Virus record (IMG/VR): IMGVR_UViG_3300029886_000150
Strand: one strand, 5' to 3'
DNA length: 33,017 bases
From: a virus
Lineage: Duplodnaviria; Heunggongvirae; Uroviricota; Caudoviricetes
Position 1 is the first letter of the stretch, and every line of letters begins with the position of its first letter. The notes below the pieces were generated by a model that ran no database searches, had not been told where the DNA came from, and saw nothing but the letters and a program-made list of their open reading frames with translations. Below are positions 3,860 through 27,605 of the stretch, one piece after another. A program made the translations under genes and the position numbers.

Positions 3860-6134
3860 AGCCTCCGGGCGTTTTGTCCCTCCGTCAGCATTTGCCGCAG
3901 GCACCGGTAAGGCGTTTACCGGTGCTTATGCATGGAACGCGCCACGCGAGGCTGTCGGGCGCGAAAGACCCCTTACACGTGACGAGATGCGTCAGGTGCA
4001 AGGTGTTTTATCCACGATTAACCGCCTGCCTTACTTTTTGCGCTCGCTGTTTACTTCACGCTATGACTACATCCGGCGCAATAAAAGCCCGGTGCACGGG
4101 TTTTATTTCCTCACATCCACTTTTCAGCGTCGTTTATGGCCGCGCATTGAGCGCGTGAATCAGCGCCATGAAATGAACACCGACGCGTCGTTACTGTTTC
4201 TGGCAGAGCGTGACCACTATGCGCGCCTGCCGGGGATGAATGACAAGGAGCTGAAAAAGTTTGCCGCCCGTATCTCATCGCAGCTTTTCATGATGTATGA
4301 GGAACTCTGCGATGCATGGGTTGATGCACATGGCGAAAAAGAATCGCTGTTTACGGATGAGGCGCAGACTCACCTGTATGGTCATGTTGCTGGCGCTGCA
4401 CGTGCTTTCAATATTTCCCCGCTCTACTGGAAAAAATACCGTAAAGGACAGATAACCACGAGGCAGGCATATTCTGCCATTGCCCGTCTGTTTAACGATG
4501 AGTGGTGGACTCATCAGCTTAAAGGCCAGCGTATGCGCTGGCATGAGGCGTTACTGATTGCTGTCGGGGAGGTCAATAAAGACCGTTCTCCTTATGCCAG
4601 TAAACATGCCATTCGTGATGTGCGTGCACGCCGCCAGGCAAATCTGGAATTTCTTAAATCGTGTGACCTTGAAAACAGGGAAACCGGCGAGCGCATCGAC
4701 CTTATCAGTAAGGTGATGGGCAGTATTTCTAATCCTGAAATTCGCCGGATGGAGCTGATGAACACCATCGCCGGAATTGAGCGTTATGCCGCCGCAGAGG
4801 GTGATGTGGGGATGTTTATCACGCTGACCGCGCCGTCAAAGTATCACCCGACACGTCAGGTCGGAAAAGGCGAAAGTAAAACCGTCCAGCTAAATCACGG
4901 CTGGAATGATGAGGCATTTAATCCAAAGGATGCGCAGCGTTATCTCTGCCATATCTGGAGCCTGATGCGCACGGCATTCAAGGATAATGATTTACAGGTC
5001 TACGGTTTGCGTGTCGTCGAGCCACACCACGACGGAACGCCGCACTGGCATATGATGCTTTTTTGTAATCCACGCCAGCGTAACCAGATTATTGAAATCA
5101 TGCGTCGCTATGCGCTCAAAGAGGATGGCGACGAAAGAGGAGCCGCGCGAAACCGTTTTCAGGCAAAACACCTTAACCGGGGCGGTGCTGCGGGATATAT
5201 CGCGAAATACATCTCAAAAAACATCGACGGCTATGCACTGGATGGTCAGCTCGATAATGATACCGGTAGGCCGCTGAAAGACACAGCTGCGGCTGTTACC
5301 GCATGGGCGTCAACGTGGCGCATTCCGCAATTTAAAACGGTTGGTCTGCCGACAATGGGGGCTTACCGTGAATTACGCAAATTGCCTCGCGGCGTCAGCA
5401 TTGCTGATGAGTTTGACGAGCGCGTCGAGGCTGCACGCGCCGCCGCAGACAGTGGTGATTTTGCGTTGTATATCAGCGCGCAGGGTGGGGCAAATGTTCC
5501 GCGCGATTGTCAGACTGTCAGAGTCGCCCGTAGCCCGTCGGATGACGTTAACGAGTACGAGGAAGAAGTCGAGAGAGTGGTCGGCATTTACGCACCGCAT
5601 CTCGGCGCGCGTCATATTCATATCACCAGAACCACGGATTGGCGCATTGTGCCGAAAGTTCCGGTCGTTGAGCCTTTGACTTTAAAAAGCGGCATCGCCG
5701 CGCCTCGGAGTCCTGTCAATAACTGTGGAAAGCTCACTGGTGGTGATACTTCGTTACCGGCTCCCACGCCTTCTGAGCACGCCGCAGCAGTGCTTAATCT
5801 GGTTGATGACGGTGTTATCGAATGGAATGAACCGGAGGTCGTGAGGACGCTCAGGGGTGCATTAAAACACGGCCTGAAAACACCAAACCGTCAGCAAAGA
5901 AACGGAAGCCCGTTAAAATCACATGAAATAGCACCGTCGGCCAGGCTGACCCGGTCGGAACGATTGCAAATCACCCGTATCCGCGTTGACCTTGCTCAGA
6001 ATGGAATCTTGCCCCAGCGATGGGAGCTTGAGGCGCTGGCGCGTGGGGCAACCATAAATTATGACGGGAAACAATTCACGTATCTGGCTGCTGATGAGTG
6101 GCCGGGATTCTCAACAGTAATGGAGTGGACATGA
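3849..6134 (+). CDS. A: Rolling-circle replication initiator / nicking endonuclease A (P2 gpA-like), 761 aa
   Basis: ORF track 3807..6134 begins at TTG; first ATG at 3849 gives 761 aa, the P2 gpA length. Sequence resembles the gpA family as recalled; position after B and the early ORFs. Confidence 0.9.
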   Translation: MAVKASGRFVPPSAFAAGTGKAFTGAYAWNAPREAVGRERPLTRDEMRQVQGVLSTINRLPYFLRSLFTSRYDYIRRNKSPVHGFYFLTSTFQRRLWPRIERVNQRHEMNTDASLLFLAERDHYARLPGMNDKELKKFAARISSQLFMMYEELCDAWVDAHGEKESLFTDEAQTHLYGHVAGAARAFNISPLYWKKYRKGQITTRQAYSAIARLFNDEWWTHQLKGQRMRWHEALLIAVGEVNKDRSPYASKHAIRDVRARRQANLEFLKSCDLENRETGERIDLISKVMGSISNPEIRRMELMNTIAGIERYAAAEGDVGMFITLTAPSKYHPTRQVGKGESKTVQLNHGWNDEAFNPKDAQRYLCHIWSLMRTAFKDNDLQVYGLRVVEPHHDGTPHWHMMLFCNPRQRNQIIEIMRRYALKEDGDERGAARNRFQAKHLNRGGAAGYIAKYISKNIDGYALDGQLDNDTGRPLKDTAAAVTAWASTWRIPQFKTVGLPTMGAYRELRKLPRGVSIADEFDERVEAARAAADSGDFALYISAQGGANVPRDCQTVRVARSPSDDVNEYEEEVERVVGIYAPHLGARHIHITRTTDWRIVPKVPVVEPLTLKSGIAAPRSPVNNCGKLTGGDTSLPAPTPSEHAAAVLNLVDDGVIEWNEPEVVRTLRGALKHGLKTPNRQQRNGSPLKSHEIAPSARLTRSERLQITRIRVDLAQNGILPQRWELEALARGATINYDGKQFTYLAADEWPGFSTVMEWT

Positions 6135-6586
6135 TGGCAAAAATTCACGAGGTAAAGCTGCACGCAAAATATTTTGACCTTGTGCTGGAAGGAAAGAAAC
6201 GCGCAGAGTTTCGGAAAAATGACCGTAATTATGAGCGCGGGGACACGTTGATTTTGCATGAATGGGTGCAGGGTGTGTATACGGGGCGAAAGGTTGAAGC
6301 CCGGATAACAGATGTTACTGACCTGTCAGACTGGCTGGCAGATTATGTCTTGCTAAGTATTGAGCTGCTTAATACAGGCGCATATGAGATTGTGAACTGG
6401 AAAGAACTTAGTGAGCGTGGTCTGGTATTCAGAATTAATCATGAAATTATGCATCAGCTCGGCCTTGCTGTTATGTATGAACCAGAGACGGGGATGTCTG
6501 GCGGGGCAATGGTTGCCACGGATGGAGCATGGAACTATTCAGATGAACAGATGGAGCGTGCAAAGCAAAACGGGTGGCTTGGATAA
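6131..6586 (+). CDS. ASCH-like (DUF3850-like) domain protein, about 151 aa, first cargo gene
   Basis: ATG at 6131 overlapping the A stop (ATGA). N-terminal segment HEVKLHAKYFDLVLEGKKRAEFRKNDRNYERGDTLILHEW matches the ASCH/DUF3850 pattern as I recall it. Confidence 0.6.
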   Translation: MMAKIHEVKLHAKYFDLVLEGKKRAEFRKNDRNYERGDTLILHEWVQGVYTGRKVEARITDVTDLSDWLADYVLLSIELLNTGAYEIVNWKELSERGLVFRINHEIMHQLGLAVMYEPETGMSGGAMVATDGAWNYSDEQMERAKQNGWLG

Positions 6587-6792
6587 TGCACAGAATACCA
6601 GGCGAGATACCGCGACATAACACTAAAAATATCAAGCTGATGGCTATTGTTCACCGTCTACAGCAGATTATGGTCAACGAAAATCTGACGCCTGACGAGC
6701 TGGTCGGGTGTGCCGAAATAGTCCGGGATAATTACGGGCGGCTTAACTATATCGGTCAGTCCAGCGTTGCGCCACCACTACGCAGACGATAG
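6586..6792 (+). CDS. Small hypothetical protein, 68 aa
   Basis: ATG 6586 overlaps the upstream stop (TAATG); ORF ends at TAG 6790-6792, followed immediately by the hairpin at 6797-6835. No recognisable motif. Confidence 0.4.
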   Translation: MHRIPGEIPRHNTKNIKLMAIVHRLQQIMVNENLTPDELVGCAEIVRDNYGRLNYIGQSSVAPPLRRR

Positions 6793-6796
6793 AGAA

Positions 6797-6835
6797 CGCC
6801 GCCAGCCGTGAAACTTGTTTTCAGGGCTGGCGGCG
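6797..6835 (+). terminator. Stem-loop element, copy 1 (11-bp GC-rich stem, 17-nt loop containing GAAACTTGTTTTCAG), followed by GTTGAACAAC
   Basis: CGCCGCCAGCC (6797-6807) pairs with GGCTGGCGGCG (6825-6835); sits 5 nt after the stop of the 68-aa ORF. No U-tract follows, so it is not a canonical intrinsic terminator. Confidence 0.5.
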
Positions 6836-7016
6836 TTGAACAACGAGCGTAGCGAGGCGTTAGTTGACAGTCATATTTTTACTGCGTAGGTGCTGGTTTT
6901 TGACGGTTGAAAGGAGTTAGGTTGGAGAGCTAACAACTTACAAATATTCAAAAGTGAGCATCCTGTTGCTAACATGAGGTCGATTTTTTTATGTGGATGA
7001 TGCAAAAAGGATAGCT

Positions 7017-7748
7017 ATGGATACTGTAATCGCTTTTCTATCACTCGCTTTTTTCGTTGCTTTTTTCATCGGGTTAATCAAGCCATCACTGGTGCGGATG
7101 CCAAACCGTAAACGTGCAAGTGCGGTTTATCTCGGAGGTGGTTTTGCATTGAGCATAATTGGTTCAATACTCTACCCAACAGAAAAAAGCCAGCCAGTTG
7201 CTAAAACTGAAACATCAACCGTAGCAGAACACCAAACCCAAAAAACATTCGAATATAGTGAAAAAACACTCAAGGAATATCGGAACGAGCCAAAGAAGAC
7301 TCGACACGATATTGTGAATAGTTACATTGACTTTAAGAAAGTGCCTGTCACCGCATCAGATGTATTTTACGCCTGCATGAGTGAGTATACATTTACCAAA
7401 GATGATGAGTTGAAACTCGGTGATGTTCTTGGGTGGTGCTTTAATGATTATGAAAATGACCCGAATTCATTAAACAATAAAATCAATCTTGATACATTTC
7501 AGAGTAATTTTAGTGGTTGGGATGGTTCTTATCGGCCATTGGAAAAACTAATTAAAGATAATATGAACGATGATTCATCTTATAAACATGTGTCAACGCT
7601 ATATCATTTGGTTTTGAATAAAGACCCGCATGCCATTGTGAAAACCACGTTTCGCGGAACTAATGCTTATGGCGGGGTGGTTAAACAGACGATCTCGGCG
7701 CGTGTTGATGTGCGAACGGGTGAAGTTGTTTCGATACTCGATAACTAA
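7017..7748 (+). CDS. Cargo protein with two predicted N-terminal transmembrane helices and a C-terminal soluble domain of about 180 aa; function unknown
   Basis: ORF track 6993..7748 starts at GTG; ATG 7017 has a better ribosome-binding site (AGGA, 5-nt spacer). Hydrophobic segments VIAFLSLAFFVAFFIGLI and AVYLGGGFALSIIGSILY. AT-rich coding sequence. Confidence 0.65.
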   Translation: MDTVIAFLSLAFFVAFFIGLIKPSLVRMPNRKRASAVYLGGGFALSIIGSILYPTEKSQPVAKTETSTVAEHQTQKTFEYSEKTLKEYRNEPKKTRHDIVNSYIDFKKVPVTASDVFYACMSEYTFTKDDELKLGDVLGWCFNDYENDPNSLNNKINLDTFQSNFSGWDGSYRPLEKLIKDNMNDDSSYKHVSTLYHLVLNKDPHAIVKTTFRGTNAYGGVVKQTISARVDVRTGEVVSILDN

Positions 7749-7765
7749 ACCAGTAAAGTGATAAA

Positions 7766-7802
7766 CGCCGTCAGTACTGAAACTTGTTTCAGGCTGACGG
7801 TG
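7766..7802 (+). terminator. Stem-loop element, copy 2 (CGCCGTCAG / CTGACGGTG stem around CTGAAACTTGTTTCAG), followed by GTTGAACGAC
   Basis: Same loop core and same downstream GTTGAAC motif as copy 1, with different but still complementary stem bases; sits 18 nt after the 2-TM gene stop. Confidence 0.5.
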
Positions 7803-7848
7803 TTGAACGACATTAACAGTGATAAATTAGTAGCGGAACACAATAATC

Positions 7849-7877
7849 TTGTTTTGTGCATGAAAAGCATGTATTGT
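7849..7877 (+). promoter_or_regulatory. Candidate sigma70-type promoter for the 224-aa cargo gene (TTGTTT, 17-nt spacer, TATTGT)
   Basis: Hexamers with a 17-nt spacer about 30 nt upstream of ATG 7908, in an AT-rich intergenic region after the copy-2 hairpin. Confidence 0.3.
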
Positions 7878-7907
7878 GCGTAAAACGTCTATTTTACGAG
7901 GTGCGTT

Positions 7908-8582
7908 ATGGTTTTTCGTGCAGATGAAAGTGCTCAACGTGGATTTGAGAAAGCATGCAGTGTATTGATTACAAATGATATCGTTGGTAATGAGAGAGCT
8001 TTTGCTCGTCAAAAACTGGAACAAATTATTGATGAATGTGGTTCCGTAGTTGATGGGTATCCAGGTTGGCATCCTTTTTTGATGGAAACTGATTCAGATA
8101 GTTTTTCTCCAATGATTCCTGATAATTGCTCAAGTTATCGACTGCTTGATCATTCTGTATATCTGGTAAATGGAATCATAACGTGTCCTTATAGTCATGC
8201 AGTTGGCCAGTTAGTTAGCAATATTCAAGCGATACGAAACAAGCATGATTTAGCTGATATAACGATAGAAGAAATTAAAGGCGTGACTTTCTACAATTCT
8301 CATACAACACCTATGTTAATTAGATGCCGTTGGAAAACTGGACTGGAAGAAGATGGCACAATCCCCCTGCGTACAGCTTTGGGGTTGATGCTTGAAAGAG
8401 AATTGCCGGGATGGAGATGGGGACGATTTAATCAGAGTTGGGAAAGCATGAGAGGGGATATTTTGGGTTATCCTCATGGCGCTAGGTCTTCTTTATTTGT
8501 CAATCAGCAAACAGGTCAGCAGCTAAAAAACGTATGGAATCAACTTATAAAAGCTGGTTTATGGGGGGATGAATATAAATAA
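7908..8582 (+). CDS. Soluble cargo protein, 224 aa, function unknown
   Basis: ATG 7908 after GAGG; AT-rich; last gene before the cos region. No motif I can assign to a known family. Confidence 0.65.
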   Translation: MVFRADESAQRGFEKACSVLITNDIVGNERAFARQKLEQIIDECGSVVDGYPGWHPFLMETDSDSFSPMIPDNCSSYRLLDHSVYLVNGIITCPYSHAVGQLVSNIQAIRNKHDLADITIEEIKGVTFYNSHTTPMLIRCRWKTGLEEDGTIPLRTALGLMLERELPGWRWGRFNQSWESMRGDILGYPHGARSSLFVNQQTGQQLKNVWNQLIKAGLWGDEYK

Positions 8583-18164: not shown

Positions 18165-18950
18165 TTATGAGTGATTTTTATTTGATGCTTTGTATTCTAA
18201 AACCTTCTTATTGGCGTAAAAGAATTTTGTATATGACAGGAATATAACCAGACCTGAAGTGAAATAGACGAGGGATAGTATTAATAATGCTTTTTTGTGA
18301 CTGTTATTATCTTTAATCTCCTGGCTTAACCATTCGGAGTCCTCCTCGTTTAGCTGTAAGAGCTTATTGCAGGCGATTTCAGGAAGTGTGTCTTTTATAA
18401 ATACGTTTTGCAGTCTCTTGCAATCGGCAAGGCTATAAGTTTTATTAAATTCAACTGCTTTATTTTTGAAGGATAAAAGAACTTTGTCACTATAAACATA
18501 GTACATCATATTTTTATATGGTATGCCTATGGCATCTCTTACTATAGCGGATTGTTTGTTGTGTATATAACATGCGAAGAGAATATAAATAATACTGGCC
18601 AGAATTACAATTGTTGTTTTAATTATGTGTGGTGGTTTTGTTATGTCACCCCAGAAGCGAGTAAGGAAAAAATACGATGTTTTTAGTTTTCCATCAATCA
18701 GCCCCTGCTGTATCATTCTCACATCTTCGATGCCTGATACATTGATTCCGTTAATTATTTTAAATAGTTGAATGTCGCGCCATTTTTTGTCGAGCATTTT
18801 TAACTTTCTGTCTGAATACTCAAGATTGAAATGATGTGCAATAAACCTCATAAGATTACTTTTACCAAAGGTAACAAATGTTAATGCTATTAATAAAAAT
18901 AGATACAAAGAGATAAACCACCACGCATTAGTCACATTATCACTGAACAT
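18165..18950 (-). CDS. AT-rich moron: predicted 3-TM membrane protein, 261 aa, function unknown (position of P2 orf30)
   Basis: ORF 18165..18950 minus; ATG with GGAG ribosome-binding site; hydrophobic segments WWFISLYLFLLIALTFVTF, TTIVILASIIYILFACYI and ALLILSLVYFTSGLVIFLSY; opposite strand to the flanking late genes. Confidence 0.7.
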   Translation of the reverse strand: MFSDNVTNAWWFISLYLFLLIALTFVTFGKSNLMRFIAHHFNLEYSDRKLKMLDKKWRDIQLFKIINGINVSGIEDVRMIQQGLIDGKLKTSYFFLTRFWGDITKPPHIIKTTIVILASIIYILFACYIHNKQSAIVRDAIGIPYKNMMYYVYSDKVLLSFKNKAVEFNKTYSLADCKRLQNVFIKDTLPEIACNKLLQLNEEDSEWLSQEIKDNNSHKKALLILSLVYFTSGLVIFLSYTKFFYANKKVLEYKASNKNHS

Positions 18951-19033
18951 TACGCTCTCCTCGAATGTTGTATGGTCGTTCTACAAATGAATCCAGATAG
19001 CATAACTTTTATATATTGTGCAATCTCACACGC
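18951..19033. promoter_or_regulatory. Divergent promoter region: moron promoter (minus) and expected late promoter P_V (plus)
   Basis: 83-bp gap between divergent start codons; contains an imperfect dyad TGT-N11-ACA (18969-18985) resembling, but not exactly matching, the activator-site pattern I recall for P2 late promoters. Confidence 0.4.
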
Positions 19034-19669
19034 ATGAACACTCTCGCAAATATTCAGGAACTCGCGCGCGCACTGCGCAACATGATTCGCACCGGCATTA
19101 TCGTCGAAACCGACCTTAACGCCGGTCGCTGCCGCGTGCAGACCGGCGGCATGTGCACCGACTGGCTTCAGTGGCTGACCCATCGCGCAGGACGTTCGCG
19201 CACATGGTGGGCACCTTCCGTGGGGGAACAGGTGCTGATTCTGGCCGTGGGTGGTGAACTCGACACGGCGTTCGTTCTGCCGGGGATTTATTCCGGCGAT
19301 AACCCCTCGCCGTCTGTGTCGGCGGATGCCCTGCATATCCGTTTCCCTGACGGGGCGGTGATTGAATATGAACCCGAAACCAGTGCACTCACGGTAAGCG
19401 GAATTAAAACGGCCAGCGTGACGGCTTCTGATTCTGTTACTGCCACGGTGCCGGTGGTCATGGTGAAAGCATCAACCCGCGTCACCCTGGACACCCCGGA
19501 GGTGGTCTGCACCAACAGGCTGATTACCGGCACGCTGGAAGTGCAGAAGGGCGGGACGATGCGCGGCAACATTGAACACACCGGCGGTGAACTCTCATCA
19601 AACGGTAAGGTACTGCATACCCATAAACACCCCGGCGACAGCGGCGGCACAACCGGGAGTCCTCTATGA
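19034..19669 (+). CDS. V: Baseplate spike / assembly protein V (P2 gpV-like), 211 aa
   Basis: ORF track 19016 starts at TTG; ATG 19034 (MNTLANIQELARAL...) gives 211 aa as in P2 gpV. Confidence 0.9.
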   Translation: MNTLANIQELARALRNMIRTGIIVETDLNAGRCRVQTGGMCTDWLQWLTHRAGRSRTWWAPSVGEQVLILAVGGELDTAFVLPGIYSGDNPSPSVSADALHIRFPDGAVIEYEPETSALTVSGIKTASVTASDSVTATVPVVMVKASTRVTLDTPEVVCTNRLITGTLEVQKGGTMRGNIEHTGGELSSNGKVLHTHKHPGDSGGTTGSPL

Positions 19670-21459: not shown

Positions 21460-23706
21460 ATGAGCACAAAATTCAAAACCGTTATCACTACTGCCGGTGC
21501 AGCAAAGCTGGCAGCGGCAACCGCGCCGGGAGGGCGGAAGGTCAACATTACCACGATGGCCGTCGGGGATGGCGGTGGTAAATTGCCTGTCCCGGATGCC
21601 GGACAGACCGGGCTTATCCACGAAGTCTGGCGACATGCGCTGAACAAAATCAGTCAGGACAAACGAAACAGTAATTATATTATCGCAGAGCTGGTTATTC
21701 CGCCGGAGGTGGGCGGTTTCTGGATGCGTGAGCTTGGCCTGTACGATGATGCGGGAACATTAATTGCCGTGGCGAACATGGCCGAAAGTTATAAACCCGC
21801 TCTTGCCGAAGGCTCAGGGCGTTCGCAGACCTGCCGCATGGTCATCATCGTCAGCAGTGTGGCCTCAGTGGCGCTGACCATTGACACCACAACGGTGATG
21901 GCGACGCAGGATTACGTTGATGACAAAATTGCAGAACACGAACAGTCACGACGCCACCCGGACGCCTCACTGACTGCAAAAGGTTTTACTCAGTTAAGCA
22001 GCGCGACCAATAGTGAATCTGAAACGCTGGCTGCAACGCCGAAAGCGGTTAAGGCAGCGTATGACCTTGCTAACGGAAAATATACCGCTCAGGACGCCAG
22101 CACGGGGCGAAAAGGTCTTGTTCAGCTAAGTAGTGCCATCAACAGCGAATCTGAGACGCTCGCAGCAACGCCGAAGGCAGTTAAGACAGCATATGACCTT
22201 GCTAATGGCAAATACACCGCGCAGGACGCCACCACCGCGCGAAAAGGCCTTGTTCAGCTCAGTAGTGCCACCAACAGCGATTCTGAAACGCTGGCCGCAA
22301 CGCCAAAGGCGGTTAAGACAGCGTATGACCTTGCTAACGGGAAATACACTGCACAGGATGCCACCACAGCGCGAAAAGGTCTTGTCCAGCTAAGTAGCGC
22401 CACCAACAGTGATTCTGAAACGCTGGCCGCAACACCAAAAGCGGTGAAGTCTGCCAATGACAATGCTGAAAAACGTCTTCAGAAAGATCAGAACGGTGCG
22501 GATATTCCTGATAAAGAACGCTTCCTGAGTAACATTAATGTTTACAGCAAAGGTGAAGTGGATAAGAAAAAGGGAATGCGAAAGTATTCGTTTGCAGCCC
22601 CTGCAAATGTCGTTGCCGGGAAGTGGTATCCCGTTATCTTTCGCCGTGCTGCCAGCCTTTCAGGAGAAATGGCATCCCGCGTCGTTATTTCCACTGGTTG
22701 TTATAACGGCGATTATGTAATGAATAACTGCGAGTTTAATGGCATGGTTATGCCCGGAGGATGGACTGATCGTGGTTCATATGCGGCAGGTTATTTCTGG
22801 ACGTATCAGACCAATGAGCGTTCAATCCATTCCATTGTTACAAGCCTGAAAGATGATGATGTATGTAGTGTTTTTTATGTTGAAGCCAGAGCTTTCCCTG
22901 TGCAAATTCTTGCAGAGGAAGGGCTAACGGTTATTGTTCCGACAGAGGATTATGTCGTCGGTCAAACGACATATAAGTGGGGGGCAACTAATCCCGCTAC
23001 AGAAAGCACGAACGCACAGGCTATTCTGGATTTTAAAAATGGGCGCGGTTATTACTGCTCACATCCATTTATTTCCAACCTTTCAGGAAATGCTGCAACA
23101 GCCTCAAAACTCGAAACACCGAGGAAAATAGCAGGTGTTGCCTTTGATGGTTCTGGAGATATTACCCTTAATGCCAGAAATGTCGGTGCATTTGCACTTC
23201 GGCAGACAGGTAATACGGTTAATGGTGATACAGCCGTTGGATGGAATTGGGACAGTGGCGCATACAACGCTCTGATTGGGGGAGCATCTGCATTAATTCT
23301 TCACTTTAATATAAATGCTGGTAGCTGCCCGGCTGTACAGTTTCGTGTGAATTATAAAAATGGCGGTATATCTTACAGGTCAGCCCGTGATGGTTATGGT
23401 TTTGAATCTGGCTGGTCTGATTTCTATACCACAACACGAAAACCCTCAGCGGGAGATGTTGGTGCATACACCAAAGCTGAGTCAGATTCACGTTATGTGA
23501 GAGACATGCGGCTGGGCGGTGCATCTACATATAAACCAGCAAATAATGGTACTACATGGACGCATCAGGCTCCGTCAGGTTGCGTATATACCGGCATTAT
23601 TGTTCAGGATACCGGCTCAAACTCTGCCGATAACATTGGTGGCGTATATTACAGACCGGTGCAGAAATACATTAACGGGACATGGTATAACGTGGCGCAG
23701 GTATAA
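21460..23706 (+). CDS. H: Tail fibre protein H, 748 aa, with internal tandem repeats and a variable C-terminal region
   Basis: Position between I and G; N-terminal region as in P2 gpH; longer than the 669 aa I recall for P2 H, with the extra length explained by the repeat block. Confidence 0.85.
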   Translation: MSTKFKTVITTAGAAKLAAATAPGGRKVNITTMAVGDGGGKLPVPDAGQTGLIHEVWRHALNKISQDKRNSNYIIAELVIPPEVGGFWMRELGLYDDAGTLIAVANMAESYKPALAEGSGRSQTCRMVIIVSSVASVALTIDTTTVMATQDYVDDKIAEHEQSRRHPDASLTAKGFTQLSSATNSESETLAATPKAVKAAYDLANGKYTAQDASTGRKGLVQLSSAINSESETLAATPKAVKTAYDLANGKYTAQDATTARKGLVQLSSATNSDSETLAATPKAVKTAYDLANGKYTAQDATTARKGLVQLSSATNSDSETLAATPKAVKSANDNAEKRLQKDQNGADIPDKERFLSNINVYSKGEVDKKKGMRKYSFAAPANVVAGKWYPVIFRRAASLSGEMASRVVISTGCYNGDYVMNNCEFNGMVMPGGWTDRGSYAAGYFWTYQTNERSIHSIVTSLKDDDVCSVFYVEARAFPVQILAEEGLTVIVPTEDYVVGQTTYKWGATNPATESTNAQAILDFKNGRGYYCSHPFISNLSGNAATASKLETPRKIAGVAFDGSGDITLNARNVGAFALRQTGNTVNGDTAVGWNWDSGAYNALIGGASALILHFNINAGSCPAVQFRVNYKNGGISYRSARDGYGFESGWSDFYTTTRKPSAGDVGAYTKAESDSRYVRDMRLGGASTYKPANNGTTWTHQAPSGCVYTGIIVQDTGSNSADNIGGVYYRPVQKYINGTWYNVAQV
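21991..22455 (+). repeat. About 3.5 tandem copies of a 132-bp (44-aa) in-frame repeat inside H
   Basis: Units begin at 21991, 22123, 22255 and 22387 (QLSSATNSESETLAATPKAVK.AYDLANGKYTAQDA...RKGLV); nucleotide identity between units is high. Confidence 0.85.
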
Positions 23707-23709
23707 TTT

Positions 23710-24237
23710 ATGCAGCATTTAAAAAATATTACGGCGGGTAATCCAAAAACGGTTGAACAATATCAATTGACAAAGGACTTTGATGTTGTCTGGTTTTTTT
23801 CAGAAGATGGTAAGAACTGGTACGAACAACAAAAGTATTTTGCTGATGACACGATGAAAATAGCGTACGACAAAGATAATATCATCCGCTATGTGGAAAA
23901 GGATGTGACAGCTATCAGACCGGATGGATTAAGTGTTGTTGAAGTGGCGGATATTACTGCTAACCGACGGGCGGACATTTCAGGGAACTGGATGTTTAAG
24001 GACGGCAAAGTGATTAAACGCATTTATACGGCAGAGGAATTGCAGCAGCAGGCAGAAATTCGGAAAGCCAGACTTCTTGCAGATGCTGAATCCGTGATTT
24101 TGCCGCTGGAGCGCGCGGTCAGACTGAACATGGCAACAGAGGAGGAGCGCACACGGCTGGAGTCTTGGGAACGCTACAGCGTTCTGGTCAGTCGTGTGGA
24201 TCCTGCAAATCCTGAATGGCCGGAAATGCCGCAATAA
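23710..24237 (+). CDS. G: Tail fibre assembly chaperone G, 175 aa
   Basis: ORF 23710..24237 directly after H; 175 aa as in P2 gpG. Confidence 0.85.
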
Positions 24238-24428
24238 GTTGTATGAGCTCTGGTGGGAGCTTACATATCTATGGCACAGAGTAAAGCCTAATCTGACAGT
24301 CCGCTCTGTGCCATTACCGGACATACTGAGCAGAAGGCTAAAAAGGACGCTTTCAGGACATATAGCAAGGGAGCAAGGATGAAAGAATTAACCCAGTATA
24401 TTTAATGTTTCAATCATGATAGTTTCTG

Positions 24429-24461
24429 AATTAAAGGGGGGGGTACCCACCCCCTTTAATT
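24429..24461. terminator. Strong palindromic hairpin AATTAAAGGGGG (loop) CCCCCTTTAATT; candidate bidirectional terminator
   Basis: 12-bp perfect stem (24429-24440 / 24450-24461) with a 9-nt loop, overlapping the stop codon of the minus-strand 92-aa gene and about 190 bp downstream of G. Confidence 0.55.
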
Positions 24462-24738
24462 ACTTGTTCCACTCAGTCAGAATTTGGTTACTAACTTCAT
24501 CTGAGAGATTGTACCAATAAGCTGAGTTATTGGTTGCATCTACAACAATAAGCTTATCATCACTATCCATGACCGCCCTCACAATTTTGGCTGCATCCTC
24601 GACAGAGTAACTACAGTTAACATACCAGTTCGATTCAGTTGTTAAAGCCCAATTTCCTAAAGATTTAATTGCATCATACACAGCCGCATAATCTTTCGTT
24701 TTAATGAGGTCGTAAGTAATAAATAAATTATTAGCCAT
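24460..24738 (-). CDS. Hypothetical cargo protein, 92 aa, function unknown
   Basis: ORF 24460..24738 minus; ATG with GGGAG ribosome-binding site (6-nt spacer); AT-rich; alternating hydrophobic and charged segments suggest a small alpha/beta domain. Confidence 0.6.
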   Translation of the reverse strand: MANNLFITYDLIKTKDYAAVYDAIKSLGNWALTTESNWYVNCSYSVEDAAKIVRAVMDSDDKLIVVDATNNSAYWYNLSDEVSNQILTEWNK

Positions 24739-24761
24739 AAATCATCTCCCAAAGGACAAAG

Positions 24762-24784
24762 AAAAAAGCGCCTAGAAAGGCGCT
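24762..24784 (-). terminator. Rho-independent terminator between the DUF3606-like gene and the 92-aa gene (minus strand)
   Basis: Stem AGCGCCT / AGGCGCT (24767-24773, 24778-24784) with a 4-nt loop, followed on the minus strand by a 6-U tract (plus-strand A-run 24762-24767). Confidence 0.6.
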
Positions 24785-24790
24785 CATATA

Positions 24791-24970
24791 TTAATGGTCT
24801 TTAAGCCATGCCTGTACTTTCTTAGCCGAATGACCTACAGCCTGTACGGCTTGAACAAGTTTGGCCTCGCTAACTCCAAACTTTTCAGCCCAATCACGTC
24901 TCTCGTAATCCTGTTTGATACTTATTAAATCATTGTCAGGGGTACCGATTTTGGTCTTATCATCAGCCAT
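24791..24970 (-). CDS. DUF3606-like small protein, 59 aa
   Basis: ORF track 24791..25009 trimmed to ATG 24968-24970 (MADDKTKIGTPDNDLISIKQDYERRDWAEKFGVSEAKLVQAVQAVGHSAKKVQAWLKDH); the pattern matches the DUF3606 family as I recall it; GAGGA ribosome-binding site. Confidence 0.6.
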   Translation of the reverse strand: MADDKTKIGTPDNDLISIKQDYERRDWAEKFGVSEAKLVQAVQAVGHSAKKVQAWLKDH

Positions 24971-25461
24971 TTTACTGATTCCTCGTGATACAGGCTTATA
25001 CCTGCCCATTAGTTATATGGCTCCCGTGCTGCTTCGTAAACGTTCAATAATCAAACAATTGACACTGATCATAAAACCAGTTAGAGGATTTGACTCTAGC
25101 TTGGATATATGATGATGCCACCCCCTTTATATTGTTGTCGGTAACTCACAGACATTGAACTCATGCTGGTGAGTGAAAGGCTACATAAACGCCCAACATT
25201 TAAACTGCCCTCAGCAGTGTTCGCGGAGCAATATACAGGCTTCGTATTCAATCCTTGCCCTACGAGAAACCCTAGCCGTTGCCTCGTTTTCAAGTGTCAG
25301 GAAGTTCTTTGTCAGACCTCATACAGTCTTGGGCTGGGTGAGGTGCATGGGGGAAGTTGAAGCCTTAACTGTTGAGGTAAATCGAACTATAAGTGTGCAA
25401 TTTTTCAAGCTCGGCGCTATTTTAGTATTGAAAACAATTAGTACGCCCCCAAGGACAACTC

Positions 25462-26028
25462 ATGATCGAATTTATCGCAGAGCATATAAACACAGTAAGT
25501 ACACTTATCTCCGCTTTGGCAGCATTGCTAACAGCAGTTGCTACATTTTTCTTGTGGAGAGTAACAAGGCTATTAGCAGACGAGACAAAAAGGATGGTTG
25601 ACGCATCAGTTCAACCTCATGTCGTTGTGACTCTTGAACCAAATTCTTGGGCTGCTTTTTATTTTGATATCAATATTGCTAATACCGGAAATGCCCCAGC
25701 CTATGATATTGAAGTCGGATTTAATCCCCCACTGGTTAATGCAGAACATAGAAAAAATAAAGGTATACCATTTAGCAAGGTTAGCGTATTGAAAAACGGC
25801 CATTCCCTCAACAGCAGTCTTTGTAAGTATGACCAGATTAAAGATCAAGTTTATTCTGTTAGTATTAGCTGGTCTAAACAGCCGGGCTCAACTGAAAGAG
25901 AGCGGAATGAGTATTCTTATGATATGGCTTCTTTCGAGGGGGTTAGCTACTTAGGTGCAAGGAGTCCAATGACACAGATAGCTGAGCAGATGAAAAAGAT
26001 TAGAGAAGACTGGAGGCCGATTTCCTAG
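25462..26028 (+). CDS. Membrane-anchored cargo protein, 188 aa (one N-terminal TM helix plus soluble domain), function unknown; ends at an in-frame TAG
   Basis: ATG 25462 after AAGGA; hydrophobic segment VSTLISALAALLTAVATFFLW; AT-rich. The frame stays open for 41 further codons after TAG 26026-26028, to TAA 26152-26154. Confidence 0.6.
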   Translation: MIEFIAEHINTVSTLISALAALLTAVATFFLWRVTRLLADETKRMVDASVQPHVVVTLEPNSWAAFYFDINIANTGNAPAYDIEVGFNPPLVNAEHRKNKGIPFSKVSVLKNGHSLNSSLCKYDQIKDQVYSVSISWSKQPGSTERERNEYSYDMASFEGVSYLGARSPMTQIAEQMKKIREDWRPIS

Positions 26029-26289
26029 GGAAGCAAAAAAATTAAAACAGACAACTATAATTCAAGTGACAGAGCCGAGGAACAACGAGCACGTGAAGAG
26101 TGGTATCAGACCACTGCAAAGAAATGGGATAAAGAAAAGCAAAAAGATAACTAATACAATTGACCTGCTCCCCATAAATTAGCATACCACAATCTCAGGT
26201 CCGCTCTTCGCTCAAAACAGGCTGTCAGATTTGACAGAATTTTGGTTACGTAATTTGTCAGTTGGAAACAGAGAGAGTACAAATCAAGG

Positions 26290-26414
26290 CAGGCAAGCTG
26301 ATTGCCCGCCTTTTCTTTATCTGTTGTTTCATCCACTGACCAGCCAGGTCAAATAGCGTCTCATGTACTACCCAACGGAAAATAGTTGCACCCATTAACC
26401 ACGGAGTTAAACGG
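26290..26414 (+). promoter_or_regulatory. Expected late promoter region P_F upstream of FI
   Basis: Intergenic region upstream of the FI start, assigned by position as in P2; contains the dyad TGACC-N5-GGTCA (about 26350-26364). Not confirmed as an Ogr site. Confidence 0.35.
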
Positions 26415-27605
26415 ATGAGTGACTATCATCATGGCGTGCAGGTGCTGGAGATTAACGACGGCACCCGCGTCATTTCCACCGTATCTACTGCCATTGTCGG
26501 CATGGTCTGCACGGCCAGCGATGCGGATGCGGAAACCTTTCCCCTCAATAAACCTGTACTGATTACCAATGTGCAGAGCGCAATTGCAAAGGCCGGTAAA
26601 AAAGGCACGCTGGCGGCATCGTTGCAGGCCATCGCTGACCAGTCAAAACCGGTCACCGTTGTCGTGCGCGTGGAAGACGGCACCGGTGATGACGAGGAAA
26701 CGAAACTCGCACAGACCGTTTCCAATATCATCGGCACCACCGACGAAAACGGTCAGTACACCGGACTGAAAGCCCTGCTGGCGGCGGAGTCGGTAACCGG
26801 TGTTAAACCGCGTATTCTCGGTGTGCCGGGACTGGACACCAAAGAGGTTGCTGTTGCACTGGCATCCGTCTGTCAGAAGCTGCGCGCTTTCGGATATATC
26901 AGCGCATGGGGCTGTAAGACCATTTCCGAGGTGAAAGCCTACCGCCAGAATTTCAGCCAGCGTGAGCTGATGGTCATCTGGCCGGATTTCCTCGCATGGG
27001 ATACGGTCACCAGTACCACCGCCACCGCGTATGCCACCGCCCGTGCGCTGGGTCTGCGCGCTAAAATCGACCAGGAGCAGGGCTGGCATAAAACGCTGTC
27101 CAATGTCGGGGTAAACGGTGTTACCGGCATCAGTGCCTCTGTATTCTGGGATTTGCAGGAGTCCGGCACCGATGCTGACCTGTTGAACGAGTCAGGTGTC
27201 ACAACGCTGATTCGCCGTGACGGTTTCCGCTTCTGGGGTAACCGTACCTGCTCGGATGACCCGCTGTTCCTCTTTGAAAACTATACCCGCACCGCGCAGG
27301 TGCTGGCCGACACGATGGCTGAGGCGCACATGTGGGCGGTGGACAAGCCCATCACTGTAACGCTGATTCGCGACATCGTTGACGGCATCAATGCCAAATT
27401 CCGTGAGCTGAAAACAAACGGCTATATCGTGGATGCGACCTGCTGGTTCAGCGAAGAATCCAACGATGCGGAAACCCTCAAGGCCGGAAAACTGTATATC
27501 GACTACGACTATACACCGGTGCCTCCTCTTGAAAACCTGACCCTGCGCCAGCGTATTACCGATAAATACCTGGCAAATCTGGTCACCTCGGTTAACAGCA
27601 ATTAA
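26415..27605 (+). CDS. FI: Contractile tail sheath protein FI, 396 aa
   Basis: ORF 26415..27605; 396 aa as in P2 gpFI. Confidence 0.9.
   Translation: MSDYHHGVQVLEINDGTRVISTVSTAIVGMVCTASDADAETFPLNKPVLITNVQSAIAKAGKKGTLAASLQAIADQSKPVTVVVRVEDGTGDDEETKLAQTVSNIIGTTDENGQYTGLKALLAAESVTGVKPRILGVPGLDTKEVAVALASVCQKLRAFGYISAWGCKTISEVKAYRQNFSQRELMVIWPDFLAWDTVTSTTATAYATARALGLRAKIDQEQGWHKTLSNVGVNGVTGISASVFWDLQESGTDADLLNESGVTTLIRRDGFRFWGNRTCSDDPLFLFENYTRTAQVLADTMAEAHMWAVDKPITVTLIRDIVDGINAKFRELKTNGYIVDATCWFSEESNDAETLKAGKLYIDYDYTPVPPLENLTLRQRITDKYLANLVTSVNSN

Follow-up and report, generated by a model that had tools for sequence, protein, structure and literature searches.

A P2-like prophage with DS-46 and a DUF8453 gene at its Z/fun cargo hotspot

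The stretch of DNA analysed here (the window: all 33,017 nucleotides of IMG/VR record IMGVR_UViG_3300029886_000150) is a prophage of P2-like (Peduovirus) type. Over its first 25 kb, about 82% aligns to P2-like phages, at 96% identity. Between the tail-fibre assembly gene G and the tail sheath gene FI of the prophage, in the slot where P2 carries Z/fun, lies an AT-rich cargo cassette. The slot and its contents can be read with fair confidence as a known hotspot holding a two-module cargo: DS-46, a minus-strand pair made up of a DUF3606 gene and a gene for a 92-residue protein of the Cas2/VapD superfamily, and an independent plus-strand gene for a membrane-anchored DUF8453 protein. The cassette is already known as sequence, and its two-gene part has already been validated and named. 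In terms of annotation, the window is a P2-like prophage with DS-46 and a probably disabled DUF8453 gene, not the carrier of a new system.

The minus-strand pair and DS-46

The pair occupies a minus-strand module (module A, about 24429-25083) in which a promoter-like site, the DUF3606 gene, a T-run hairpin, the gene for the 92-residue protein and a terminator-like hairpin follow one another. The first gene (24791-24970, minus strand) encodes a 59-residue protein 100% identical to WP_001406733.1. The product of the second (24460-24738, minus strand) matches WP_000002748.1 at 91 of 92 residues (98.9%), the sole difference, V46A, falling at a site where both V and A are found in relatives. In the DefensePredictor study (Science 2026, PMC13092281), Table S6 lists these two accessions in row 'RMRT' as DS-46, with the entry defensive TRUE. 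The geometry equals that of the DS-46 entry as well: a unit of 511 bp from start to stop (Table S6, 62985-63495), a gap of 491 bp and a divergent open reading frame (ORF) of 693 bp. Because the proteins are near-identical and stand in the same order and geometry, the window pair is, judged by sequence, DS-46, both accessions belonging to one transcription unit. Protection of E. coli K-12 from phage is a literature result for essentially identical proteins (the ECOR copy), and by analogy it should apply to the window pair. According to the strain list and the passages on control units in the same paper, the clone relied on its native promoter, not on pBAD, and bears the name pCV1-RMRT; 'RMRT' came from the 'HHblits hits' control set of 24 random units with remote defence homology and DefensePredictor log-odds <0, one of which defended, the text citing Fig. 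S7A, whose legend names DS-46 (PMC13092281). A relationship to RmrT of RosmerTA was considered and set aside: the only hint is the label 'RMRT', and neither gene family matched the RmrT model in PADLOC.

A sequence-only reading of the window had offered the cassette as a candidate for an undescribed system. This does not hold, as the pair is DS-46 (PMC13092281) and the cassette is present in GenBank AJ512682 and in phage R18C (PMC6823313). The same reading could place none of the three proteins in a characterised defence family, and here the searches agree with it: neither PADLOC 2.0.0 nor NCBIfam gives a significant match. The best PADLOC E values were 0.029 and 0.027 for the module A proteins, with none for the membrane protein in either truncated or full-length form, and the NCBIfam scan returned no matches for the three.

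The module is framed by conserved non-coding elements. A G-rich palindromic hairpin at the 3' end of the unit (24429-24461), terminator-like on both strands in inverted-repeat and terminator scans, is also kept after the gene for the 92-residue protein in two unrelated islands (loci L010 and L012). Between the two genes, where a terminator had been noticed at first reading, the terminator scan does find, on the minus strand at 24766-24785, a hairpin of 8 pairs (5 G-C) followed by a T-run; L010, L012 and L014 retain its GCGCC/GGCGC stem, even with a different upstream gene. Upstream of the unit, a relaxed sigma-70 scan finds a promoter-like TTTACG-N17-TATAAC (25012-25040, minus strand), a consensus match only, which is kept as TTTACG-N17-TATAAG in L010 and L012. 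In other enterobacterial islands the pair adjoins integrases without the third gene, with the same 56-bp spacer hairpin, promoter-like site and terminal G-rich hairpin. Between window 24460-25083 and L010 3650-4279, the DUF3606 proteins share 98.6% amino acid identity and the Cas2-like proteins 77%, with synonymous sites saturated in the Cas2-like gene; such mosaic divergence within the unit implies, at the sequence level, recombination at or near the intercistronic hairpin.

The DUF3606 protein aligns to the full length of PF12244 (E 4.3e-18) at 65.3 bits, against a gathering cut-off of 24.3. Its gene evolves under strong constraint, with a ratio of nonsynonymous to synonymous substitution rates (dN/dS) of 0.035 and 98.6% amino acid identity to the island copy at a dS of 0.41. 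The C-terminal ~40 residues of the PADLOC candidate model PDC-M03B match 26 of 27 members of the DUF3606 family (best E 9e-10), which suggests that the domain may be reused in another candidate defence system. A longer, 72-residue form starting at 25009 was rejected: the 59-residue start is preferred because it is preceded at 9 nt by an AGGA ribosome-binding site, agrees with the RefSeq call and respects the conserved promoter-like -10 element at 25012-25017. A 234-residue gene product encoded upstream of a Yersinia ruckeri DUF3606 gene was also considered and is not a DUF8453 homologue.

The affiliation of the 92-residue protein emerges from its relatives. A profile search of 1.8 billion representatives yielded 2,341 family clusters, and 88 relatives were examined further. 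Pfam CRISPR_Cas2 (PF09827) is matched by 14 of the 88 (best E 6e-6) and PADLOC Cas2_II by 22 (best E 1e-6); many match further Cas2 models weakly, and no other family comes near. The family profile also picks up BPSL1038 at E 0.12. The window protein itself lies below every curated threshold for Cas2 models. Since relatives match Cas2 models and no rival family competes, it is concluded that the protein represents a putative stand-alone branch of the Cas2/VapD superfamily. The family consensus has a K/R-x-Q-x-S-x-W-Y-V motif and a Y-D that ends strand 1, which would mirror the Cas2 signature; the sole invariant residue is D61, in the loop between helix 2 and strand 4. Neither cas1 nor a CRISPR array adjoins the gene, its neighbours being P2 tail genes and the DUF8453 gene, and no array-type repeats occur in 24100-26500. 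Other loci of the family adjoin integrases. A Pfam scan of fused or longer relatives returned no informative partner domains, and sequence searches of solved structures with single sequences and profiles gave nothing significant. As a putative effector, the DS-46 protein offers a compact test case for Cas2-like proteins outside CRISPR.

The DUF8453 gene and its premature stop

The second module (module B, about 25331-26154, plus strand) consists of a single gene. Its ORF (25462-26028) had been described at first reading as encoding a membrane-anchored protein of 188 residues; the ORF and its hydrophobic N-terminal helix are there, but the product is a truncated allele of a 230-residue protein. 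It matches phrog_11802 (E 3e-117) over positions 1-188 of 230, and alignment to 230-residue relatives places the cut at the same point. The name DUF8453 is taken from the RefSeq records of three copies that are 98.8-99.2% identical.

The truncation is due to a TAG stop (26026-26028; alignment column 627) where relatives have CAG, encoding Gln189. Beyond it, the 3' end of the ancestral frame persists as 41 codons and the original stop (26029-26154; translation GSKKIKTDNYNSSDR...). Residues 1-188 are 100% identical to the representative of cluster P0001, and the window allele departs from full-length DUF8453 in that residues 189-230 are lost to the TAG. The lost part includes the invariant G190, the near-invariant D197, D203 and R204, and the last predicted helix (201-229). 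As the stop removes the conserved C-terminal 42 residues, module B is probably impaired in the window. A 58-mer spanning the TAG has an exact match in none of 90 matching complete E. coli genomes, and the exact 188-residue product occurs on only 4 contigs of a collection of 15 billion proteins; the allele is thus rare and probably disabling, or else a sequencing error. As a natural C-terminal deletion, it can be compared with the full-length form. Some other E. coli copies have lost the N-terminal membrane helix through insertion of an insertion sequence (IS).

The AlphaFold2 model of the 230-residue form (predicted local distance difference test score 87.5) has an N-terminal helix (2-49) that holds the hydrophobic segment, an immunoglobulin (Ig)-like sandwich of seven strands (54-154) and two further helices (169-188 and 201-229). 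The transmembrane (TM) helix, to a striking degree, and the C-terminus are conserved across the family. Acidic residues precede the hydrophobic segment and R/K-rich sequence follows it, a charge distribution that predicts an N-out/C-in topology with the Ig-like domain in the cytoplasm.

In the DefensePredictor tables, the mean log-odds is 6.99 for the 230-residue copy next to DS-46 and 8.24 for another E. coli copy. Each has the class 'Predicted novel defense gene', and both accessions are missing from the list of units put to the test. HHblits gives a partial match to drt1b, the membrane partner of DRT1 (coverage 0.16, probability 91-92). In the DefensePredictor study, 45% of predicted units were confirmed (PMC13092281). 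Because of this rate, the full-length protein is given somewhat less than an even chance of being a membrane-acting defence or exclusion protein. The gene is in any case widespread as cargo, and its prediction score is high.

Module B is also found by itself, in Xanthomonas, Pectobacterium, a sphingomonad, Klebsiella, Enterobacter and E. coli transfer RNA (tRNA) islands (E2348/69, NCTC11023). In the aligned enterobacterial island copies (Enterobacter, E. coli), about 130 bp of conserved upstream DNA accompany it. Elsewhere, DUF8453 homologues are convergent with an AbiJ_NTD4-domain or DUF3800 gene (L020-L022 4001-4573, L029 4001-5577, L038 4080-5591), and these same loci lie near a serine recombinase and a DEAD/DEAH helicase.

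The cassette, its slot and its surroundings

On the left, the slot is flanked by the P2 G-like tail-fibre assembly (chaperone) gene (23710-24237, plus strand; Pfam Caudo_TAP, E 4.2e-33), whose RefSeq relatives are annotated as tail fiber assembly protein, and on the right by the P2 FI tail sheath gene (26415-27605, plus strand; Pfam Phage_sheath_1 E 9.8e-34, Phage_sheath_1C E 1.4e-22). The edges of the insert were set by alignment to three P2-like phages with other cargo: the left backbone alignment breaks off at 24313 or 24325 and the right restarts at 26199, so that the cassette comprises 24314-26198 (1,885 bp). A conserved backbone hairpin (GGCACAGAG...CTCTGTGCC, 24273-24312) marks the left edge, the common P2 backbone ending directly after it at 24313; in the conserved right backbone, a terminator scan finds another (26286-26312, 11 pairs) upstream of FI. 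The junctions at 24313 and 26199 are the same in the three phages, whose cargo is unrelated: a SMEK-domain gene (phage 12474III), NUDIX and HAD genes, or two other ORFs. Variable DNA with conserved junctions between G and FI is the P2 Z/fun (tail-gene) accessory hotspot, and the placement made at first reading is borne out by these fixed junctions across different cargo. The fun locus has been described as P2-like phages' second locus enriched in defence (Vassallo 2022), and a survey of 1,511 P2 elements found a defence hotspot inside the P2 tail genes (Moura de Sousa 2026).

The earlier remark that the cargo is AT-rich also stands, the insert having a G+C content of 40.8% vs 55% in the right flank and 51.5% in the entire window. 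Its three ORFs lie where they were first read, each with many homologues and under purifying selection (dN/dS 0.035 for DUF3606, ~0.11 and 0.13-0.18 for the other two). A 9-nt direct repeat, GTCCGCTCT, is found at both junctions (24299-24307 and 26199-26207). Its right copy has one mismatch in one other P2 variant and is missing from R18C, 12474III and P24C9; the repeat is probably not a general recombination site and was dropped as such. The inverted repeats annotated in AJ512682 are weak in the window (73% over 33 nt, or ~93 nt if many mismatches are allowed) and were rejected as functional.

The window cassette is 97.8% identical to AJ512682, 'Bacteriophage P2-EC53 proviral Z-region', a 2003 record in which the plus-strand gene is labelled 'ORF1, putative lysogenic conversion protein'. 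Phage R18C is as close to the window cassette as AJ512682, and its description treats the genes at the fun(Z) position as morons of unknown function (2019, PMC6823313). Of 5,426 complete E. coli genomes, 99 have the complete cassette (>=80% coverage), in every case on the chromosome. In E. coli E6474 (NZ_CP116981.1, 1569205-1572716), an IS4-like ISVsa5 element interrupts it. The DUF3606 gene carries no annotation in the R18C record. R18C gp23 and gp25 (L002 2193-2327 and 3594-3734) correspond to window ORFs 24794-24928 (plus strand) and 26042-26185 (minus strand); gp23 is antisense to the DUF3606 gene and gp25 to the 3' end of the DUF8453 gene, and both look like mis-annotations. These and other antisense or overlapping small ORFs were set aside, gp23 and gp25 overlapping conserved genes on the opposite strand; no homology search was made on small ORFs. 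The gap between the modules also contains several such ORFs (65-142 residues).

This gap had been estimated at about 450 bp, which holds (452 bp) if the ATG at 25009 is used; with the preferred RefSeq start of the DUF3606 gene (24970), the distance between start codons is 491 bp. About 110 bp of it, among them the site at 25012-25040, travel with DS-46 and about 130 bp with module B, the latter block including a promoter-like TTAACT-N17-TATAAG (25365-25393, plus strand; scan, consensus match only). The middle ~250 bp (25084-25330) form a non-coding spacer not alignable to the upstream regions of either module elsewhere; bar four short, weak matches the spacer is confined to the cassette, and of the 103 E. 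coli genomes that match, 99 do so over at least 80% of its length. A non-coding RNA in the gap was rejected after three scans. The sole two Rfam hits over 23700-26900 (a hairpin, E 0.12; STnc150, 18 bits where the cut-off is 60) fell below threshold, at the level of chance; the two strands, when folded, had z-scores of +0.65 and +0.26 with no excess RNA stability; and no tandem or array-type repeats were found in the gap (scan of 24100-26500). As far as these comparisons go, the gap is promoter and leader DNA for two divergent units plus a spacer of ~250 bp with no detectable function.

Other parts of the window hold further accessory DNA. In the other P2 cargo slot, between the replication gene A and the portal gene Q (6098-8582), lie genes for an ASCH/DUF3850+DUF7415 protein (162 residues) and ORFs of 251 and 224 residues; the latter two have no Pfam match and none of the three proteins has a PADLOC match. 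On the minus strand at 18165-19336, ORFs of 261 and 128 residues sit amid plus-strand tail and baseplate genes, at what is the third moron position of R18C, with no significant Pfam or PADLOC matches. In the translated tail-fibre protein (21460-23706), a segment of ~45 residues (...KGLVQLSSATNS(D/E)SETLAATPKAVK(T/A)AYDLANGKYTAQDA...) is present about four times in tandem.

Competing readings and known systems

The mode of action proposed for DS-46 is modelled on toxin-antitoxin (TA) systems. The 92-residue Cas2-like protein is predicted to act as a small dimeric nuclease-type effector, which the DUF3606 protein, in excess, may restrain or regulate. The intercistronic hairpin would attenuate read-through into the effector gene and keep the DUF3606 protein in excess; attenuation is suggested by the ~27 nt from the hairpin to the next start codon, which leave no room for a separate promoter. 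Infection would then free the effector, causing nucleic-acid damage and aborting the infection. This abortive model, the preferred one, is tentative and rather unlikely to be right. The wider picture, in which DS-46 is a minimal CRISPR-independent Cas2/VapD abortive system with DUF3606 as restraint or sensor, and DUF8453 a new single-gene defence with a TM effector and an Ig-like sensor, is unlikely to hold as a whole; if it did, DS-46 would show in a present-day system the toxin-type ancestry that has been proposed for Cas2. Several observations tell against these readings. The window 92-residue protein has no Pfam match at E<=1 and reaches PADLOC Cas2_II only at E 0.029; only 75 of the 88 relatives have D or E at the Cas2-type Asp; and the clade found in P2 cassettes has Leu at position 32, usually basic, and Thr at 34, usually Gln. 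The DUF3606 and Cas2-like genes also occur apart, and their unequal identity between the same two loci (98.6% vs 77%) does not fit tight TA co-evolution. The DefensePredictor score of the DS-46 pair is -4.5, i.e., non-defensive, which makes DS-46 the one validated system that the predictor scored as non-defensive. Finally, the DS-46 entry, as it stands in the tables and control-unit text of the paper, gives a phenotype without fold assignment or mechanism (PMC13092281).

The modules themselves have been read here as independent, not as the single three-gene locus first proposed, since other mobile elements carry either one by itself and the two-gene unit is enough for defence on its own. That all three genes form one system, the membrane protein serving as effector or sensor of the pair under a shared divergent control region, is improbable. 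The modules are indeed nearly always together in E. coli (102 genomes have module A, 105 module B and 99 the complete cassette) and share the 491-bp divergent region; because these copies belong to one cassette lineage at >=97% identity, their co-occurrence reflects shared descent and not coupling. The modules are also alternative cargo in related elements, the pair scored defensive by itself, and the window has an intact pair next to a truncated third gene. Two loci, L014 3476-5590 and L023 3645-7143, are related integrative elements with a common integrase fragment, a terminal integrase and small genes of 51-65% amino acid identity; the same slot holds a 55-residue ORF and a Cas2-like gene in L014, and a DUF8453 homologue and two small ORFs in L023, which suggests a cargo hotspot in a different family of elements. 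The locus first offered as a candidate holds up as defensive for two of its three genes (DS-46), and only by prediction for the third.

For that third gene, a role in lysogenic conversion or host physiology instead of anti-phage activity is possible, if on the unlikely side. The AJ512682 label points that way, as does a sphingomonad homologue lying between riboflavin and cell-shape genes; P2 hotspots also hold toxins, partition genes and hydrolases, and nonsense, IS-disrupted and N-terminally truncated copies of module B exist. Set against this are DefensePredictor log-odds of 7-8, the presence of module B in prophage, satellite and tRNA-island cargo slots, some next to AbiJ-like or DUF3800 genes, and the lack of any domain indicating a metabolic or virulence role in Pfam and NCBIfam scans. 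As for the pair, it might mainly be an addiction (TA) module for the cargo or prophage, with defence as a side effect: both genes are small, the upstream one highly conserved and the downstream one an attenuated putative nuclease, and the pair adjoins integrases at island ends. Gene order and the presumed attenuator would suit a type II pair of the VapXD kind, and VapD, a relative of Cas2, is a known toxin (cited in PMC10491678). The partners are not obligately linked, however, and the measured phenotype is phage defence, which leaves addiction a quite unlikely primary role. That the stand-alone Cas2-like protein is an anti-CRISPR, a decoy that poisons spacer acquisition by host Cas1-Cas2 to the benefit of the prophage, is extremely improbable; all that speaks for it is the fold relationship to Cas2 and the location in a phage. 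The preferred reading remains that of two independent modules, DS-46 and the DUF8453 gene.

Set beside known systems, the 92-residue family shares with Cas2, VapD and BPSL1038 an acidic residue closing strand 1 and a Ser at the turn between strands 2 and 3. Unlike Cas2, its window gene stands without Cas1, a CRISPR array or other cas genes, and not every family member has the catalytic-type Asp. In PDC-M03B, a model of 262 positions, DUF3606 would be only a terminal domain; the window protein itself matches the model weakly (E 0.02), and PDC-M03 is itself only a candidate system. Like module B, drt1b of DRT type 1 has a single N-terminal TM helix, but module B has no reverse transcriptase partner. 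HK97 gp15 is a single-pass prophage exclusion protein that likewise has an N-terminal TM helix and is encoded by a moron with its own promoter. For the bulk of module B, the Ig-like domain and the helices, no counterpart is known. As cargo, the cassette resembles P2 hotspot cargo generally in being AT-rich and made of self-contained genes with their own promoters. We take PADLOC to cover the PD systems, and none of the window proteins has a significant match in it. They have no sequence relationship to any other P2 hotspot cargo, although P2 fun(Z) and the other tail-hotspot genes, including three PD systems (Vassallo 2022) and the SMEK gene of 12474III, a domain found in DS-27, occupy the same slot with the same junctions. 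The closest counterpart is DS-46 itself, in which both genes recur with order and spacing unchanged, as does the divergent 230-residue neighbour across a 491-bp gap; the neighbour is full-length at the published locus and truncated in the window, and nothing material differs in module A.

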